Shown: positions 3,873-57,272, numbered from the stretch's first letter. The stretch is 64,000 nucleotides of DNA from an uncultured bacterium (GCA_964654545.1 CAZZIU010000010.1:14037-78036); one strand, 5' to 3'. The notes: generated by a model not told the origin, from the sequence alone. Numbers and translations: made by a program.

Positions 3873-6104
3873 ATGAGTATGTTCGCCGAAATTGCATTTC
3901 CAATATCCAGCTATCAAACGTTTACATATAGCATACCAGATGAAATGCAGGTACTGATGGATATTGGTGTCCGAGTTAAAGCACCCCTTGGTAAACGCAT
4001 CGCTCAGGGTGTTGTCGTTTCCATAAGCACCAACTCCTCCTATGCTGGAACGATAAAACCAATCAAATCTCTGGTGGATAGCCAGCGCATTTTGGATCAG
4101 CATTTATGGAAATTGATTCAATGGATTAGTAAATACTACCTTACTCCCATTGGTCAGGTTGCAAGAACCATCTTGCCAAATAAGCTCTCCACTAATTATG
4201 AGCCACGCGGACAATGGATGGTCGAAGCAATTTCCACCGTACCCGATTGGTCAATTCTTCGTAATGCACCGACACAATCCTTGATGTTTAAAACAATCCT
4301 TGAATTCAAGGAACCGGTACCTGTAGCAAAATTGGGAAATCTGGCCAGCAGTCCCCTTACAGCTTGCCGGGCACTGTCAGACAAAAAACTTGTGAAAATC
4401 TGGCAGAAAATTATTCCACCAGATACAACCGGATTCACGTTTAAAGCGCTACACAAAACACTCCGGTTTTCGGAATCACAGAAGCAGGTGCTGGACAAAC
4501 TTTATAATGCGTTAAAGACAAATACGTTTGCACCATACCTGTTGCACGGTGTAACGGGAAGCGGAAAGACTGAAATATATATTTCAACCGCGCAGCAGGC
4601 ACTCAAGCAAGGGAAATCGGTCATAGTGTTATTACCGGAAATTGCACTTACACCACAAATAGGAGGTCGTTTCAGATCCGCATTTGGGGATCGGGTTGGA
4701 CTGTGGCACTCAAAGATGAGCCCGGCTCTTCGTGCATGGACATGGAAACGAATATGTTCTGGCGACTTCCAGGTAATTGTTGGAGCCCGAAGTGCAATTT
4801 TTGCCCCAATGAAAAATCTTGGATTGATTATTGTTGACGAGGAACAGGAAAGCACATATAAGCAAGATGCACCAGCTCCGCGATACCACGCCAGGGATGT
4901 GGCACTCGTTAGGGCCCAATTCCAAAACGCTATTATCATCCTTGCAAGTGCAACCCCAAGCCTTGAGAGTTTTTACAACCAGACACAGCAAAAAATTTCC
5001 TACCTGAATCTACCTGACCGCTACGGAGGAGCGGTTTATCCATATGTCCATCTGGTAGACATGAAAAAAGAGCAGGAAGAATCAGGAAAAGGCGGACAGA
5101 TTTTTAGCGGATTGCTTCTGGAAAAAATTGAGGATCGGCTGCATAAAGAGGAACAGATTATCATTTTGCATAATCGTCGTGGCTATGCACCTGTTATGCA
5201 CTGTTTTTCCTGTGGCGATGTGGTAATGTGTCCGCATTGTAAAATTGCACTAACCTACCATAAAACACATCGGGGTCTGCAGTGTCATTTTTGTGGTTAC
5301 CACACGGTTCATTTACCACAAGATTGTCCAACTTGTCATAGTGATCGATTGCAATTATCAGGTTTGGGAACACAAAGAATTGAGGAATTGCTTGATCGAT
5401 CTTTTCCGGAAGCAAAGATTGTACGCCTGGATCAGGATACGGCGACTTCAGTTCAAAACGTTACGAAGTTGCTTGAGAAATTTGCGGAGGGTGATGGAGA
5501 CATTTTACTGGGTACCCAAATGATAGCCAAAGGTCTGGATTTCGAAAAGGTCACGCTTGCCGGTATTGTGAATGCCGATACCGGATTGTATTTGCCGGAC
5601 TTTAGAGCATCGGAACGGATCTTCCAGCTGATTTATCAGACCGCCGGAAGAACAGGACGCAGGTCCATTCAGGGAGAGGTTGTAATTCAGAGTTACAACC
5701 CAGAAAATCCAGTTATAAAGCATGCTGCACAACTCCATGTAAAAAACTATTATAACATCGCTTTAAGCGATAGACAGGAACTAAATTATCCGCCGTTTAG
5801 TTGGATGGTTAAATTAGAATTTTCTGGCAATCGACAGGAAAAAGTAATATCAGCCGCTGAGGAGATCAGAAAAGCGCTTAACATCAAAAGAAAAGGATTG
5901 GATGTTTTAGGTCCGGCCAATTGTTATAGAGAAAAATTGCGAAACAAATACAGAATGCAAATTGTAATCAAATCCTCCAAGAAAACAGATCCTAATGGTT
6001 CCTATTTGCGGTCCGTAGTTGAAAAAATGATCCCAGATATTAGTCGCGCGAAAAACAGCGGTGTAGCTATCGCAATAGATGTGGATCCAGTTAGCCTGCT
6101 CTGA
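3873..6104 (+). CDS. priA: Primosomal protein N' (helicase)
   Basis: LHGVTGSGKTE, IVDEEQE, ASATPSLES, two CxxC pairs of zinc knuckles, LLGTQMIAKGLDF. Confidence 0.96.
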   Translation: MSMFAEIAFPISSYQTFTYSIPDEMQVLMDIGVRVKAPLGKRIAQGVVVSISTNSSYAGTIKPIKSLVDSQRILDQHLWKLIQWISKYYLTPIGQVARTILPNKLSTNYEPRGQWMVEAISTVPDWSILRNAPTQSLMFKTILEFKEPVPVAKLGNLASSPLTACRALSDKKLVKIWQKIIPPDTTGFTFKALHKTLRFSESQKQVLDKLYNALKTNTFAPYLLHGVTGSGKTEIYISTAQQALKQGKSVIVLLPEIALTPQIGGRFRSAFGDRVGLWHSKMSPALRAWTWKRICSGDFQVIVGARSAIFAPMKNLGLIIVDEEQESTYKQDAPAPRYHARDVALVRAQFQNAIIILASATPSLESFYNQTQQKISYLNLPDRYGGAVYPYVHLVDMKKEQEESGKGGQIFSGLLLEKIEDRLHKEEQIIILHNRRGYAPVMHCFSCGDVVMCPHCKIALTYHKTHRGLQCHFCGYHTVHLPQDCPTCHSDRLQLSGLGTQRIEELLDRSFPEAKIVRLDQDTATSVQNVTKLLEKFAEGDGDILLGTQMIAKGLDFEKVTLAGIVNADTGLYLPDFRASERIFQLIYQTAGRTGRRSIQGEVVIQSYNPENPVIKHAAQLHVKNYYNIALSDRQELNYPPFSWMVKLEFSGNRQEKVISAAEEIRKALNIKRKGLDVLGPANCYREKLRNKYRMQIVIKSSKKTDPNGSYLRSVVEKMIPDISRAKNSGVAIAIDVDPVSLL

Positions 6105-51425: not shown

Positions 51426-51433
51426 TGTAATTT
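51406..51433 (+). promoter_or_regulatory. Possible sigma70 promoter for rho
   Basis: TTGACA, 16-nt spacer, TAATTT, ~90 nt upstream of rho. Confidence 0.35.
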
Positions 51434-51520
51434 AACTCTTCGGATATTTATTCTCATCGAAGGTTTTTTCGTTTAGTACGCAATCCCCCACAAGCATAAG
51501 TAAACCACAAGGTTTGTAAA

Positions 51521-52768
51521 ATGGATATTAATGAACTACAAGCCCAGAAAATCAAGGATTTAACTAAAGTTGCGCAGGAACTTGAAATCCAGGGTTTTTC
51601 AGGCCTTAACAAACAAGAACTAATTGTAAAAATTCTCCAGGCACATGCTGAGAAGCAAGGCTCCCTTTATGCCAGAGGCACATTGGAAGTATTAAATGAT
51701 GGCTATGGGTTTTTACGCAGCGCAGATTTTAATTATTTACCTGGACCGGACGATATTTATGTCAGTCCTTCTCAGATTAAGCGGTTTGGTCTGCGCACCG
51801 GGCATCGCGTCGCCGGTCAAATACGACCCCCAAAATCCAAAGAGCGATTTTACGCACTTTTAAAAGTTGATTTGGTGAATGAACGTCCTCCGGCGGATGT
51901 TAGACAAGCGATTTTATTTGAAAACCTAACCCCCGCTTTCCCGGAAGAAAAATTTAATCTGGAAGGCGATATGAAAAACATGTCCATGCGTATAATGGAT
52001 TTGTTTTCTCCTGTTGGAAAAGGCCAAAGAGCGCTTATTGTGGCTCAACCCAAAACGGGGAAAACGGTATTATTGCAGAAAATGGCAAATACCATTCGCC
52101 AGAATCATCCGGACACAAAAATGATGATTCTGTTGATTGATGAGCGTCCGGAAGAAGTAACGGACATGAAACGCAACGTAGACGCGGAAGTTGTCTCTTC
52201 AACATTTGATGAGGCCCCCGAACGCCATGTAGCCGTCGCCGACATGGTGCTACAAAGAGCAAAACGCATGGTGGAATATGGCGAAGATGTGGTGATTCTA
52301 TTGGATAGTATTACACGATTGGCACGCGCCCACAATGCCGTAATTCCTCATAGCGGTAAAATATTATCAGGTGGTGTTGATACCAATGCACTAAAGAAAC
52401 CAAAACAGTTTTTTGGAGCCGCTAGAAATATTGAGGAAGGTGGAAGCCTGACAATTATAGCCACTGCCCTTATTGACACCGGTAGTCGCATGGATGACGT
52501 AATTTTTGAAGAGTTTAAGGGCACCGGAAATCTCGAATTAGTTTTAGATCGTCGGCTAAGCGACAGAAGAATATATCCATCCTTCGATATAATACGGTCA
52601 GGAACACGGCGAGAAGAACTGTTGTTGTCCAAGAAAACGCTTGGAAGATTGTGGATCTTGCGGAAACTCCTCAACGAGATGAACGTAATTGAAGCAATGG
52701 AATTTTTACAAGAACGAATGAAGAGGACAAAATCTAACGAAGAATTTTTAGATAATATGAGTGGTTAA
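51521..52768 (+). CDS. rho: Transcription termination factor Rho
   Basis: [47 protein letters not shown]. Confidence 0.98.
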
Positions 52769-52813
52769 TACCACATCTTAGCAAGATAGTTAGCATATTA
52801 GTGAGGTATAGAA

Positions 52814-53764
52814 ATGGAAGATGAAAGAATAATAGTACCGTCTGTCACGGTCAAACTGGTTACGGATAAGCCAGTAAAGAAAACTCCCTACCAGGTAAAA
52901 GGAGTGTTCATGAAGCATTTTCCCGATGAAGAAATCGTACCAATGTTGGACGGCAGGTATCGGGAAAAATTTCTTTATCCGCGGGTTCAGGTGAAAATAT
53001 TAAATGAACAAATTTATATCCTGGGTTTGAATGAAGGCGTTGATCCAGTTTTATCATTAGTAGAAAAATTTGATTTTCTGGATTTTGGGAATATTACATT
53101 TCAGGTTCTTGGTGCCGATGTAGACAAATATGACAATCGCTTTCGCCCAACAAATCGGTTGATTCGTTACCGGTTTATAACACCCTGGGTAGCCCTGAAT
53201 CAGATCACCGGGAGCCGCTATCGGTTTTTGAATAATGCAGAACGAGCCGTTTTCCTCAATCGTTTACTTGGACAAAATATTGTATTCCTGGCGCGCGAGA
53301 TGGGAATGGATATTGAAAAGAAGATTTATACCAAAACGTCGCTCACGTCTCTTTTCCCAAAACCGGTGGATGAGCACAATTGGGGTGCTTTTACAGGTGA
53401 ATTCAGAACCAATTTTATATTGCCAAACTATATCGGTGTTGGAAACGGAATTACCCGTGGTTATGGTACAATCTATGGTTTATTCAATCCGGAAATGTTC
53501 CAATTCGATGAGGGTAATGTTGAGCCGGAAGAACTGGAAGATGCAGGCGTTGAAGAAATATCAAGCGATGACACTGAGTTGGAGGCGGTGGATGTAGCCG
53601 ATGTGCCTCAGCCGCGAAAACGGAGACCGGCAGAAAAAAAACCTGGTCGTGGACGTCGTAAAGTTCTATCAGAGGAATTTGATATTGAAGAGGATGAGGA
53701 AGAAATAGGCGAAGACGATCGTTTCAATCGGCCCGAGTTTCATAAAAAACAGCATGATCTGTAG
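52814..53764 (+). CDS. Stand-alone Cas6b-like RAMP protein with charged C-terminal tail
   Basis: YPRVQVK, YRFITPWVALN, FTGEFRTNFILPNYIGVGNGITRGYGTI (G-rich loop); ~90-aa acidic/basic tail. Confidence 0.8.
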   Translation: MEDERIIVPSVTVKLVTDKPVKKTPYQVKGVFMKHFPDEEIVPMLDGRYREKFLYPRVQVKILNEQIYILGLNEGVDPVLSLVEKFDFLDFGNITFQVLGADVDKYDNRFRPTNRLIRYRFITPWVALNQITGSRYRFLNNAERAVFLNRLLGQNIVFLAREMGMDIEKKIYTKTSLTSLFPKPVDEHNWGAFTGEFRTNFILPNYIGVGNGITRGYGTIYGLFNPEMFQFDEGNVEPEELEDAGVEEISSDDTELEAVDVADVPQPRKRRPAEKKPGRGRRKVLSEEFDIEEDEEEIGEDDRFNRPEFHKKQHDL

Positions 53765-53769
53765 ATTGC

Positions 53770-54966
53770 ATGTCATCCATTACATTAGCTGACAGAGTTC
53801 ACAAGGTAAAACCCTCCTTTACTCTGGAGATGGCAGGGAAAGCTGCCGCTCTGCGCGAGGCAGGGAAAGATGTGATCAATTTTAGTGTTGGTGAACCGGA
53901 CTTTAACACACCGGAGAATATCCGGCAGGCAGGTCATGATGCTATAGAAAATGGGTTTACCAAATACACCGCTGGCGCCGGTATGATGGAATTACGAAGA
54001 GCAATATGCGGTAAACTGAAACGTGAAAATGATATGGAATTTTCACCGTCACAGGTCCTTGTCTCCAACGGTGAAAAACAGAGTCTTTACTTGGCGTGCC
54101 AGGCCCTTTTTCAGGAGGGCGATGAAGTGATTGTGTTTTCACCCTACTGGGTTTCATTTCCTGAATTTGTAAGTTTGGCAGACGCAACACCAATCTTTGT
54201 AAATACAGTAGCGAAAAAGCAGTTTGAACCGGACTGGAATGACTTGGAAAATAAAATTACGAACCGGACGAAGGGTGTAATTTTTAATTCCCCGTCTAAC
54301 CCAACCGGCGGAGTATGGTCAAATGAAGCTGTTACCCAATTGCTGGCATTAGCATCAAAGCATAATTGGGTGGTGATTTCTGATGAATGTTATGAGCGGC
54401 TGGTATTTGACACGAAGTTTGTAAGCGCTGAAAAGTTAAACGCAGTTGGCGCAAATATTATCACCTGCATGAGTTTGTCAAAAACATATGCCATGACCGG
54501 CTGGCGGATCGGATATGCCGCCGGAGATGAAACGGTGATAAAGGCCATGACTAAAATTCAAGGACAGGCTACCTCCTGTGCCAATGCCATTGGACAAAAA
54601 GCGGCCATAGAAGCACTGAATGGCGATCAATCTGCTGTGGAAGAAATGCGGCAAACGTTTATGGAACGACGGGATTTAATTGTTGGTCTGTTAAATGACA
54701 TACCGGGTATTCACTGCGGATTACCCGGTGGAGCATTTTATGCCTTCCCGGATTTTACCGCATATATGGGAAAGACATATAATGAACGCCTCATAAAAGA
54801 TTCGTTCGGAATGTCAGATTATCTCCTGGAAATGGCGAAAGTGGTCACAGTCCCAGGCGATGGATTTGGTGCAAAGGGACACATTCGGTTTTCCTTTGCG
54901 ATCGGCAAACATCAAATACGCGATGGAATCCAGCGTGTAAAAAAAGTTTTAGAACAATTAGTATAG
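53770..54966 (+). CDS. PLP-dependent aminotransferase class I (aspartate aminotransferase-like)
   Basis: GEPDF, NSPSNPTG, SDECY, SLSKTYAMTGWRIGY. Confidence 0.93.
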   Translation: MSSITLADRVHKVKPSFTLEMAGKAAALREAGKDVINFSVGEPDFNTPENIRQAGHDAIENGFTKYTAGAGMMELRRAICGKLKRENDMEFSPSQVLVSNGEKQSLYLACQALFQEGDEVIVFSPYWVSFPEFVSLADATPIFVNTVAKKQFEPDWNDLENKITNRTKGVIFNSPSNPTGGVWSNEAVTQLLALASKHNWVVISDECYERLVFDTKFVSAEKLNAVGANIITCMSLSKTYAMTGWRIGYAAGDETVIKAMTKIQGQATSCANAIGQKAAIEALNGDQSAVEEMRQTFMERRDLIVGLLNDIPGIHCGLPGGAFYAFPDFTAYMGKTYNERLIKDSFGMSDYLLEMAKVVTVPGDGFGAKGHIRFSFAIGKHQIRDGIQRVKKVLEQLV

Positions 54967-54980
54967 AATAGGAGTAAAGG

Positions 54981-55181
54981 ATGAAACAAGATATCCATCC
55001 TGATTATCAACTTGGAACCGTGCATTGCGTTTGCGGGAATACATTTCAGGTGTACAGCACACTGGGCGACCAACGTGTTGAAATCTGCAACCAGTGCCAT
55101 CCCTTTTTTACCGGGAAACAAAAATTGATTGATACGGCCGGACGTATTGAACAATTCAAAAAGAAATACGGTAAAAAGTAA
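54981..55181 (+). CDS. rpmE: 50S ribosomal protein L31 (Zn-binding type)
   Basis: [29 protein letters not shown]. Confidence 0.97.
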
Positions 55182-55196
55182 CCCACCGCATTACAT

Positions 55197-55236
55197 GGCT
55201 TTCTTTTAACCCGTTGGGTGGGGGAAGCCTTTTTTT
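55197..55236 (+). terminator. GU-rich hairpin plus T7 between rpmE and the DUF1385 gene
   Basis: GGCTTT...GAAGCC stem with inner ACCC/GGGT; T7 ends at the next ATG. Confidence 0.55.
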
Positions 55237-56205
55237 ATGAAAAAAATCATACAACTACTGGTAGCAAAACCATCGATTCTTGTTGGCGGACAAGCTGTAA
55301 TCGAAGGTGTCATGATGCGCGTCCCCGGGGCATATGCAACGGCTGTGCGTACTCCTTCTGGTGAAATTCAGGTTGATCGGCATAAATTTGTGTCCAGGAC
55401 GGAGACATCAAGATTTTGGAAAAAACCGGTCCTGCGAGGGGTAATGGGGTTGTTTGAAGCCATGCGGATTGGCTTTCGCACACTACAATGGTCCGCGGAT
55501 ATCGCTATGCCGGAAGAAAAGGATTCTAATCCAAAAGGTTCAAACGTTGGAAATTTCTTCTCAACATTGTTTGCTGTGGGATTAGCCATCTCTTTGTTCA
55601 TGGTATTGCCGTATGTGCTAACAACCTATGTTTTTCATCTTGAAAAGGCAGCCCTTTCGTTTAACCTGGTCGCAGGAGGAATGCGTATAACCTTTTTTGT
55701 TATTTATCTTATGTTAATTTCCTTAATGAAAGATGTTAAGCGTCTGTTCAAAAATCATGGTGCGGAACACAAAGTGGTATACAATTTTGAATCAGGCAGA
55801 TCGATAACAGTAGAAAATGCCCAGAGCTTTCCAACACAACATCCGCGATGCGGAACCAGCTTTATGTTTATTGTCCTGATAATTGCAATTCTGGCATTCG
55901 CACTGGTGGATACTGTCGCTATTGCTTTGATAGGTCAATTGTCGATTCCTCTGAGATTGTTTATACATTTGCCCTTGATCCCTCTGGTTGCCGGAATATC
56001 CTATGAAGGAATTAAGATTACATCTAGACATGGTGATAAAGCGCTGTTTCGCGCGTTACGTGCACCAGGTCTATGGTTACAAAACATTACCACAAAACAG
56101 CCTGACGATGACATGGTTGAAGTTGCTATAACTGCGCTCCGTGAAGCTTTTGGTGAAAAAATAAACGAATACGAAGGTAAGTCCTTTACCGCTGAAGCTG
56201 TCTGA
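55237..56205 (+). CDS. DUF1385 (YqhQ-like) membrane protein
   Basis: [37 protein letters not shown]. Confidence 0.92.
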
Positions 56206-57272
56206 TGGAAGAAAAACTAAAACAAATTATCGAACGCTACACCAATCTAGCAGAAATGATGGCTGATCCCGTTATCCTCTCAGACCAAAATAAATTGCGT
56301 GAAACCGCACAAGAGCACAGCCATCTGGAACCCATTGTTCGGTGTGCAAAAAACTATCTGGATGTAACAAATCGTATTAATGAAGACAAATCGGTTTTGG
56401 ACGGAGATGATGCTGAATTAAAAGAACTGGTTCAAGAAGAAATCCCCGAGCTGGAAGAAGAACAACAATCGCTGGAAGAAGAATTAAAAGTTCTGATGCT
56501 ACCCAAAGACCCGAACGATGATAAAAATACAATAGTAGAAATCCGGGCCGGTACGGGTGGCGACGAAGCGGCCCTCTTTGCCGGAGATTTATTTCGAATG
56601 TATACCCGCTTTGCTGAGCGCTCTGGGTTGCAATCTGAAGTAATGGATATGAACGATACTGGTATCGGTGGGGTTAAAGAAGTAATATTTTCTGTAAAGG
56701 GCCGAGGTGTATATGGTTTGATGAAGTTTGAAAGCGGCGTTCACCGAGTGCAACGTGTGCCGAAGACAGAAGCAGGAGGCCGGGTACATACGTCCGCCGC
56801 AACAGTAGCGGTCTTGCCGGAGGCGGAAGAAGCGGATATCGAAATCAATGAAAACGATCTGAAAATTGATACGTATAGGTCCAGTGGTGCTGGTGGCCAG
56901 CATGTAAATAAAACAGAATCCGCAATTCGTATCACCCACCTCCCCACAGGATTGGTGGTAACCTGCCAGGATGAAAAATCACAGCATAAAAACCGCGCCG
57001 CCGCCATGAAAGTTTTGCGATCACGATTGCTTGCACAAGAACAGGAACGTCTAGCCTCAGAACGGGCTGAAGTGAGAAAACTACAGGTAAGCACGGGAGA
57101 TCGATCGGCCAAAATTCGTACCTATAATTTCCCCCAGGGGCGAGTGACTGATCATCGCATTAATCTCACACTCTATCAATTGGAAGCCATTTTGGATGGC
57201 GATTTGGCAGAAATAATTGAACGATTGCGTTTGGCGGACCAGCAGGAGCGACTGGCTGCTATAGGAGAATAA
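56205..57272 (+). CDS. prfA: Peptide chain release factor 1
   Basis: [11 protein letters not shown] (PxT) recognition loop, [23 protein letters not shown]. Confidence 0.98.

Follow-up and report, generated by a model that had tools for sequence, protein, structure and literature searches.

In a stretch of 64,000 nucleotides from an uncultured bacterium (GCA_964654545.1, CAZZIU010000010.1:14037-78036; this whole 64-kb stretch is hereafter called the window), an open reading frame (ORF) of 316 amino acids plus a stop codon (52814-53764, plus strand) encodes a Cas6b-like protein and directly follows rho. We consider that this protein is best explained as an exapted, probably non-cleaving, Cas6b-derived RNA-binding protein that is co-expressed with Rho, a reading to which we assign a probability of about 0.55. 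A role outside CRISPR immunity, namely in housekeeping, is highly probable, and on the best reading the gene has departed from that immunity and now belongs to the core housekeeping genes of Fidelibacterota as a phylum. The functional coupling to Rho, which we derive from sequences and gene order, is tentative and falls somewhat short of even odds. Residue numbers below refer to the Cas6b-like protein unless stated otherwise. The first-pass annotation had started the feature at 52925, which is the codon of Asp38 in the string DEEIVPML, and had ended it at 53764, the end of the stop codon.

Both halves of the Cas6b fold were recognized by Pfam over the curated gathering thresholds. Cas6b_N (PF17955, E = 2.7e-10) spans residues 11-99 (52844-53110, plus strand) and represents the first ferredoxin-like half, also called a repeat-associated mysterious protein (RAMP) half, and Cas6b_C (PF17262, E = 4.1e-25) spans residues 113-220 (53150-53473, plus strand) and represents the second RAMP half. 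The PADLOC models of Cas6 and Cas6b matched the protein with E values of 2e-42 and 2e-40, respectively, and no NCBIfam model was found that matches the rho-linked Cas6b-like family. The closest solved sequence relative is the Cas6b of M. maripaludis (MmCas6b; 4Z7K; phmmer E = 4.6e-27 over 195 residues, 26-28% identity). An AlphaFold2 (AF2) model built from 18 close orthologues reached a predicted local distance difference test (pLDDT) score of only 54.9 and was discarded. The model used here, built from an alignment of 60 sequences at 27-70% identity, had a mean pLDDT of 87.1 and a predicted template modelling score (pTM) of 0.81, with core blocks including the Cas6b_N domain above 93. When this model was compared with solved structures using Foldseek, as the first-pass annotation had suggested for MmCas6b, the top match was 4z7k_A (E = 1.5e-17, target-normalised TM-score 0.80), followed by other Cas6 families. 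The ORF is a true Cas6b homologue.

The window protein has the same two-domain fold as MmCas6b (4Z7K/4Z7L), a type I-B CRISPR RNA (crRNA) endonuclease, and both contain YP-x-x-Q-x-K, TPW-x-ALN, GxF-x-x-N and a glycine-rich loop (G-loop). In the window protein, this loop reads GVGNGITRGYG (residues 208-218; 53435-53467, plus strand), with Asn211 where the canonical loop has Lys, and its glycines G208, G210, G216 and G218 are invariant among 60 diverse members. A comparison of 72 canonical Cas6b representatives with 24 members of the rho-linked clade showed that Y55, P56, Q59, K61, Y119, F121, P124, W125, L128, N129 and N155 are retained as a structural signature, together with F193, G195, F197, N200, P204 and the loop glycines. 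Since the G-loop and the aromatic signature residues are kept, RNA binding would be retained as well. In Cas6 proteins, a role as RNA chaperone is considered to be on par with the enzymatic role (Reeks et al., PMC3652601).

The catalytic site differs from that of MmCas6b. The first-pass annotation had stated that MmCas6b reads DEEIVHNH where the window protein reads DEEIVPML, and had proposed on this basis that the pair of catalytic histidines was lost. DEEIVHNH is indeed present in the PDB chain 4z7k_B, DEEIVPML occupies residues 38-45 (52925-52948) of the window protein, and the downstream LYPR (54-57) and the G-loop are in place as described. In the phmmer alignment, P43, M44, F53 and Y55 stand opposite H38, N39, Y47 and Y49 of MmCas6b, respectively, and H40 faces a one-residue gap. 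In the MAFFT alignment H40 falls on L45, so that VPML (residues 42-45; 52937-52948, plus strand) occupies the site of the canonical H-x-H, which follows helix 1, with both histidines missing. In MmCas6b, H38 and H40 back each other up, and cleavage is drastically lost in the H38A/H40A double mutant (Richter et al. 2012, PMC3479195). The loss is family-wide. An exhaustive search of 1.84 billion cluster representatives gave 834 relatives. Of the full-length representatives at 50% identity, nearly all that fall outside the rho-linked clade have [LF]H[NQH]H in the catalytic site. His is absent from positions 41-47 in every one of the 246 family members, and the site variants of the window protein and of intermediates are VPML, IPYI, VSFI, KPFL, IQFI, CSYI, ADMV, DDFI, GNLL and VEYS. 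The family alignment contains no conserved His in the core. His35, which had been pointed out as lying nearby, is present but not conserved, and we ruled it out as a replacement catalytic residue, given that 72% of the members have Gln at this position.

The changes extend beyond the His pair. In the same comparison of 72 canonical and 24 rho-linked sequences, Lys at position 186 (96% of canonical Cas6b) is replaced by Asp, Glu or Pro, Lys at position 211 of the G-loop (88%) by Asn, Tyr at position 60 (88%) by Val or Phe, Ser at position 158 (89%) by Phe, and Gly at position 154 (83%) by Gln, Lys or Arg. The window protein is thus unlike MmCas6b in having no equivalents of H38 and H40 or of the canonical K186, K211, Y60 and S158. 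As judged from these alignments, the canonical site has been remodelled in its polar and cationic residues, and the fold and the RNA-binding scaffold are retained. Because K186 and the G-loop Lys211 are gone besides the His pair, a loss of cleavage becomes more likely, and we regard absent or negligible cleavage by the Cas6b-like protein as probable.

The loss of His does not by itself settle the matter, and the protein could still be an endoribonuclease that uses a non-His chemistry, in which Lys, Arg or Tyr stabilise the transition state, on a housekeeping RNA, its position behind rho reflecting co-regulation only. SsoCas6, which has no catalytic His, cleaves about once per min via Lys25, Lys28, Lys51 and Arg231 (PMC3652601), and Cas6 catalysis tolerates many residue combinations (reviewed in PMC6546412). 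In the rho-linked clade, K29/R29, R50, R57, K61 and Y55 are conserved and might serve in this way. However, the substitutions at 186 and 211 removed residues of just the kind that a His-free mechanism needs, the K29A/K30A mutations were without effect in MmCas6b (PMC3479195), and no residue gained in the core is both invariant in the clade and suited as an acid or base. The S. solfataricus Cas6 (Sso1437) is missing the canonical catalytic histidine as the window protein is (PMC3652601), but it cleaves CRISPR repeats via conserved Lys and Arg residues and does so within a CRISPR system, whereas the rho-linked clade has lost the corresponding conserved cationic residues of the Cas6b subfamily. 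Taken together, we consider that a still-cleaving enzyme is unlikely, and the probably non-cleaving RNA-binding protein is preferred.

The position of the gene is invariant in the loci examined. In the window, rho (51521-52768, plus strand) encodes 415 amino acids with the Rho_N, Rho_RNA_bind and ATPase domains by Pfam, and is separated from the Cas6b-like gene by a 45-nt spacer (52769-52813) in which a GAGG lies 8 nt ahead of the ATG and resembles a ribosome-binding site. We looked for a terminator-like site on the plus strand of this spacer and found none; since the two genes also share the strand, they are likely co-transcribed. In the window and in 95 of 95 other loci, with protein identities as low as 27%, rho is followed directly by the Cas6b-like gene on the same strand, and the pair is split in none of them. 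The locus of the cultured Fidelibacter multiformis is among these. Among species-representative genomes, rho was immediately upstream on the same strand in 80 of 80 loci, with core identities of 61-96%, all of them from metagenome-assembled genomes (MAGs) or single-amplified genomes (SAGs) of Marinimicrobia/Neomarinimicrobiota/Fidelibacterota. The distant representatives without the His pair (27-40% identity) gave the same result in ten cases out of ten. When the search was started from Rho in a metagenome scan, the gene was found in all five Fidelibacterota-like rho loci with room downstream. The linkage is specific to the clade. No Cas6b-like gene lay within 1-2.5 kb in about 60 rho loci with a Rho of 61-68% identity, which presumably come from other phyla. 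A connection with Rho had been a guess in the first-pass annotation, and the invariant place behind rho lends it strong, albeit indirect, support; as a genomic association, the link to rho is well supported.

While the pair is constant, its outer flanks vary. Upstream of rho we found folC, pyrBI or other genes, and downstream of the Cas6b-like gene an aminotransferase gene, lspA, ubiA or a methyltransferase gene. Three loci (L082, L083 and L086) have the order rho, Cas6b-like, lspA, with pyrBI or an opposite-strand DUF805 gene upstream of rho, another (L088) has rho, Cas6b-like, ubiA, dnaE, and in a further one (L087) a methyltransferase gene follows the Cas6b-like gene. In ten marine loci (L006-L009, L021, L070, L072, L073, L075 and L078), the aminotransferase gene is gone, or other genes and a distant opposite-strand aminotransferase gene are present, and the pair is intact. 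The spacer between rho and the Cas6b-like gene, estimated in 86 loci from the ends of tblastn alignments, is mostly about 20-80 nt and ranges from an apparent overlap of a few nt to 137 nt. Several of the roughly 60 loci without the gene show the order rho-rpmE-(DUF1385)-prfA, or folC-rho. The former order, which corresponds to 54981-57272 of the window, is common to L102, L103, L111 and L112, where Rho is 64-66% identical and no Cas6b-like gene is present. From this gene-free arrangement in other lineages, it seems that the Cas6b-like gene and the aminotransferase gene were inserted after rho in an old housekeeping cluster.

By the names of their sources, the members belong to Candidatus Marinimicrobia/Neomarinimicrobiota/Fidelibacterota (SAR406), with one MAG labelled Lentisphaeria. 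One cluster (P0155) contains WP_400166801.1 of Fidelibacter multiformis IA91, a short-tailed member; F. multiformis is the cultured type species of the phylum Fidelibacterota (PMC11652737). In a neighbour-joining tree, the rho-linked sequences lie on one side of the midpoint root, which is consistent with one origin. Strict monophyly does not follow from the tree, because the rho-linked P0147 and P0210 adjoin the canonical clade outside the main rho-linked cluster. In the marine clade, a comparison with locus L001 gave 96% identity for the core and 95% for Rho. The number of nonsynonymous substitutions per site (dN) of the core was 0.025-0.06, and since synonymous substitutions (dS) were saturated, only dN and rough upper bounds on their ratio omega could be used, the latter being roughly 0.01-0.02. 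By these rates, purifying selection on the core is very strong. The tail that follows the core has a dN 5-6 times that of the core, yet it is still constrained.

Adjacency to rho might be a frozen accident, in which a Cas6b gene decayed, remained at its place of insertion and now supplies a structural protein or a generic RNA chaperone with no part in termination. The single apparent origin in the neighbour-joining tree fits this explanation, as do a divergence between classes that is much faster than that of Rho and a tail that is lineage-specific. On the other hand, genes outside the pair were exchanged several times on both sides and the pair was not split in any of the 96 loci, the spacer is short throughout, by the above estimate, and in the marine clade core and Rho are equally constrained. 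Considering these points, we regard the frozen accident as improbable.

We found neither a CRISPR nor a tandem array in the window, and at the rho-linked loci (about 95 loci, 1.48 Mb scanned, with whole genomes outside the scan) there was no CRISPR array and no cas operon accompanying the Cas6b-like gene. The same scan detected the array of the positive control, locus L090. A cas10-csm2-csm3-csm4-csm5-csm6 operon ends in the nearest His-bearing relative checked (P0162; LHQH, 32% identity), and the only array in the 1.48 Mb, with 15 repeats, lies directly after P0162 in this type III-A CRISPR locus. Although the Cas6 and Cas6b model matches are strong, NCBI names several members 'CRISPR-associated endonuclease Cas6' and locus L086 has a separate PF01881 Cas6 two genes downstream, it is very improbable that the gene is what the automatic annotation implies, an ordinary orphan Cas6b in the service of a CRISPR-Cas system elsewhere in the genome, because the catalytic pair is missing in 246 of 246 members, no array occurs in the window or any flank, the His-bearing control lies in a real csm locus with its array, and the gene is fixed behind rho in 96 loci across the phylum with an omega of about 0.01-0.02, whereas cas genes are patchy, horizontally moving and fast-evolving.

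Two further Cas6 genes were noted in the course of this survey. In L086 (GCA_023144555.1), the PF01881 Cas6 gene (4770-5546, 258 amino acids) lies two genes past the order rho, Cas6b-like, lspA, and behind it a large gene runs into the end of the contig. This is probably where a genuine CRISPR-Cas locus borders, by chance, on the rho pair. The His pair is also missing from another Cas6b-like protein, P0189 (L091:4080-4748; GCA_043803325.1, JAZDKH010000453.1), which has 222 amino acids, reads LLPQR at the site and is encoded away from rho. Downstream of it are a YgjP/SprT-like metallopeptidase gene and, about 1.7 kb off, a bacterial gasdermin gene. P0189 falls among the canonical sequences in the neighbour-joining tree and may reflect an independent re-use of Cas6b, in this case for defence.

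The C-terminal tail of the window protein comprises 88 amino acids (229-316; 53498-53761, plus strand), of which 30 are acidic and 14 basic (net charge -16). Over the family, the tail averages 21.7% acidic and 21.8% basic residues and is a polyampholyte. The acidic blocks around a basic patch that the first-pass annotation had described are present, but its view of the tail as disordered does not hold throughout, because the tail contains four conserved motifs and residues 251-270 are modelled with a pLDDT of about 90. Among the 184 tailed members used to assess conservation, motif 1 is N-P-x-x-[FL]-x-F-[DN]-E (residues 225-233), and motif 2 is E-x-I-x-E-x-D...L-x-x-[VI]-x-[VI]-x-[DE]-V-P-x-P (residues 247-267; 53552-53614, plus strand). 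The basic patch RKRRPAEKKPGRGRRK (residues 268-283; 53615-53662, plus strand) is conserved in its Lys/Arg-rich character and not in its sequence, and directly behind it is motif 3, V-L-S-E-E-F-[ED]-I-E-E, which reads VLSEEFDIEE in the window protein (residues 284-293; 53663-53692, plus strand). The C-terminal motif 4, [FY]-N-S-[EP]-E-[YF]-H-K-K-Q-H-x-L, or FNxxE[YF]HKKQHxL in short, corresponds to RFNRPEFHKKQHDL in the window protein (residues 303-316; 53720-53761, plus strand). In tailed members, N305, H310 and H314 of this motif reach 97-99% conservation, and H310 and H314 are the only conserved His residues of the family.

In the AF2 model, the pLDDT was 92 for residues 251-260 and 87 for 261-270, and this part forms a short strand (257-259) and a turn. 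The rest of the tail was modelled with low confidence, with a weak helix at the C-terminus. The AF2 confidence of about 90 suggests that the segment 251-270 packs onto the core, and in the model one tail motif would probably fold back as an extra strand. Tail length is bimodal, with fewer than 40 residues in 61 of the 246 members and 80-130 in 184, so that the tail is a later addition in marine lineages. Being short or absent in 61 of the 246 rho-linked family members, it cannot be the basis of the rho link. The motifs were found in no other window protein and nowhere else in 86 loci, no database-wide motif search having been made. A PDB sequence search with the tail gave an insignificant best match (the tail of XRCC4, E = 0.59), and the 'RNase E-like scaffold' of the first-pass annotation is to be taken as an analogy only, for the tail has no sequence similarity to anything solved.

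Charged scaffold tails with short docking motifs are known from the C-terminal half of RNase E and from the acidic tails of Hfq and SSB. By analogy, the tail of the window protein resembles them as a low-complexity charged region with short, highly conserved segments, although the sequences are dissimilar. In the marine clade, the gained tail with its four conserved motifs and charged linkers may serve in partner docking or in autoinhibition. The most likely role of the strictly conserved FNxxE[YF]HKKQHxL is to dock a partner, which could be Rho, RNA polymerase, the ribosome or an RNase, or else to act as an autoregulatory element. In a bolder form, the domesticated Cas protein would be a dedicated, phylum-wide Rho partner and an RNA 'reader' specific for sequence or structure, signalling to Rho where it should act or hold back, and its marine E-x-H-x-x-x-H would dock on Rho or fold back to restore His to the gutted site under regulation; we hold this to be rather unlikely.

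In the proposed mechanism, Rho and the Cas6b-like protein would be made from one transcript, and the latter would act in the process that Rho carries out. The Cas6b-derived protein would bind one particular RNA of the cell, or a class of transcripts, and would cut it very slowly or not at all. Particular RNAs might thereby be marked or held, and Rho-dependent termination would be directed there or prevented. Alternatively, the Cas6b-like protein might exert its control on the rho operon itself. An RNA-specific adaptor or antagonist for Rho, or an autoregulator of the rho operon, is the most economical model.

Several observations weigh against this reading. Gene order that is conserved inside a single phylum can simply be inherited, with no functional link behind it, and all of the linkage evidence looks as if it traces to a single ancestral insertion. 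Between Fidelibacterota classes, the Cas6b-like protein retains only 27-35% identity compared with 68-80% for Rho, and this fast divergence speaks against a tight, rigid and ancient interface with Rho. In the window, we found no candidate RNA target, no Rfam hit and no meaningful family of dispersed or inverted repeats, and the rho leader has no convincing conserved structure. The cleavage by SsoCas6 via Lys and Arg in spite of its missing catalytic His (PMC3652601) likewise counts against an inference from the loss of the His pair to the loss of cutting.

In comparison with known systems, the window protein has the two RAMP domains and the G-loop that define Cas6b, whereas two further defining features, the His pair and the association with CRISPR, are missing. 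Canonical Cas6b, the crRNA endonuclease of CRISPR types I-B and III, cuts repeat RNA 8 nt upstream of the spacer. Unlike that of MmCas6b, its gene has no cas operon or array nearby, is fixed behind rho and encodes an 88-residue tail with motifs. A similar case is that of the non-catalytic Cas6 paralogues of Pyrococcus (PfuCas6nc, 3UFC; 3QJJ), which have a Cas6 fold minus the catalytic residues as the window protein does and ranked 8-9 and 14 in Foldseek. These paralogues bind repeat RNA and are encoded in CRISPR-bearing archaea. The rho-linked clade differs from them in being bacterial, phylum-wide, of the Cas6b subfamily and tied to rho instead of CRISPR; PfuCas6nc itself was termed 'non-catalytic' in PMC3652601. 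As regards Rho, if the proposed role is right, the Cas6b-like protein would be another small Rho modulator and RNA-binding like Hfq. The known regulators of Rho include the KOW domain of NusG, Rof/YaeO, Psu of phage P4 and the RNA-binding Hfq. To our knowledge, none of them is Cas-derived or encoded directly behind rho across a phylum, and none is related in sequence or fold to the Cas6b-like protein.

We found no description of a rho-linked Cas6 in the literature on Cas6 together with Marinimicrobia, Rho, exaptation or orphan and standalone Cas6, although this does not prove novelty. Nor is one described in a review on exapted Cas proteins, according to which re-used Cas proteins mostly remain within defence or mobile elements (PMC8730458). 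If the reading is true, an immune RNA-binding module was recruited to basic gene expression and fixed beside rho across a globally abundant ocean phylum, and it would constitute an unrecognised layer of control over Rho-dependent termination in a lineage barely studied experimentally. Since pipelines and defence-finders label the gene 'CRISPR-associated endonuclease Cas6', CRISPR components in SAR406 genomes are probably over-counted. The question is testable because the cultured F. multiformis carries a short-tailed family member.

The surroundings of the pair in the window follow the order folC, rho, Cas6b-like, class I/II aminotransferase, rpmE, DUF1385, prfA, prmC, ubiA. The class I/II aminotransferase gene (53770-54966, plus strand), which is the usual although not invariant downstream neighbour, starts 5 nt past the Cas6b-like stop codon. 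In the folC-rho spacer (51426-51520 in the window, and the same region in L001-L080), the element ATTTA-n-GTAAnTT is nearly invariant right behind the folC stop codon and is possibly a promoter -7 box of the Fibrobacterota-Chlorobiota-Bacteroidota (FCB) type. Next comes a hairpin whose sequence varies, with a T-run, and after this a C-rich tract (CAATCCCCCACAAG in the window). The leader hairpins are weak, with a median minimum free energy of -6.8 kcal/mol, and the spacer could be a rho leader or attenuator.

When Rho of the lineages that carry the Cas6b-like gene was compared with about 74 other Rho sequences, ten otherwise conserved positions differed, namely K7Q, D95H, G107K, F111Y, P179Q, K257G, R299Q, I358F and two more, numbered after the E. 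coli sequence. These substitutions are confounded by phylogeny and enriched in no domain, and they were not used as evidence. Positions 95, 107 and 111 lie in the N-terminal RNA-binding oligonucleotide/oligosaccharide-binding (OB) fold, where the window Rho reads ERFY at 108-111 and E. coli Rho reads ERYF.

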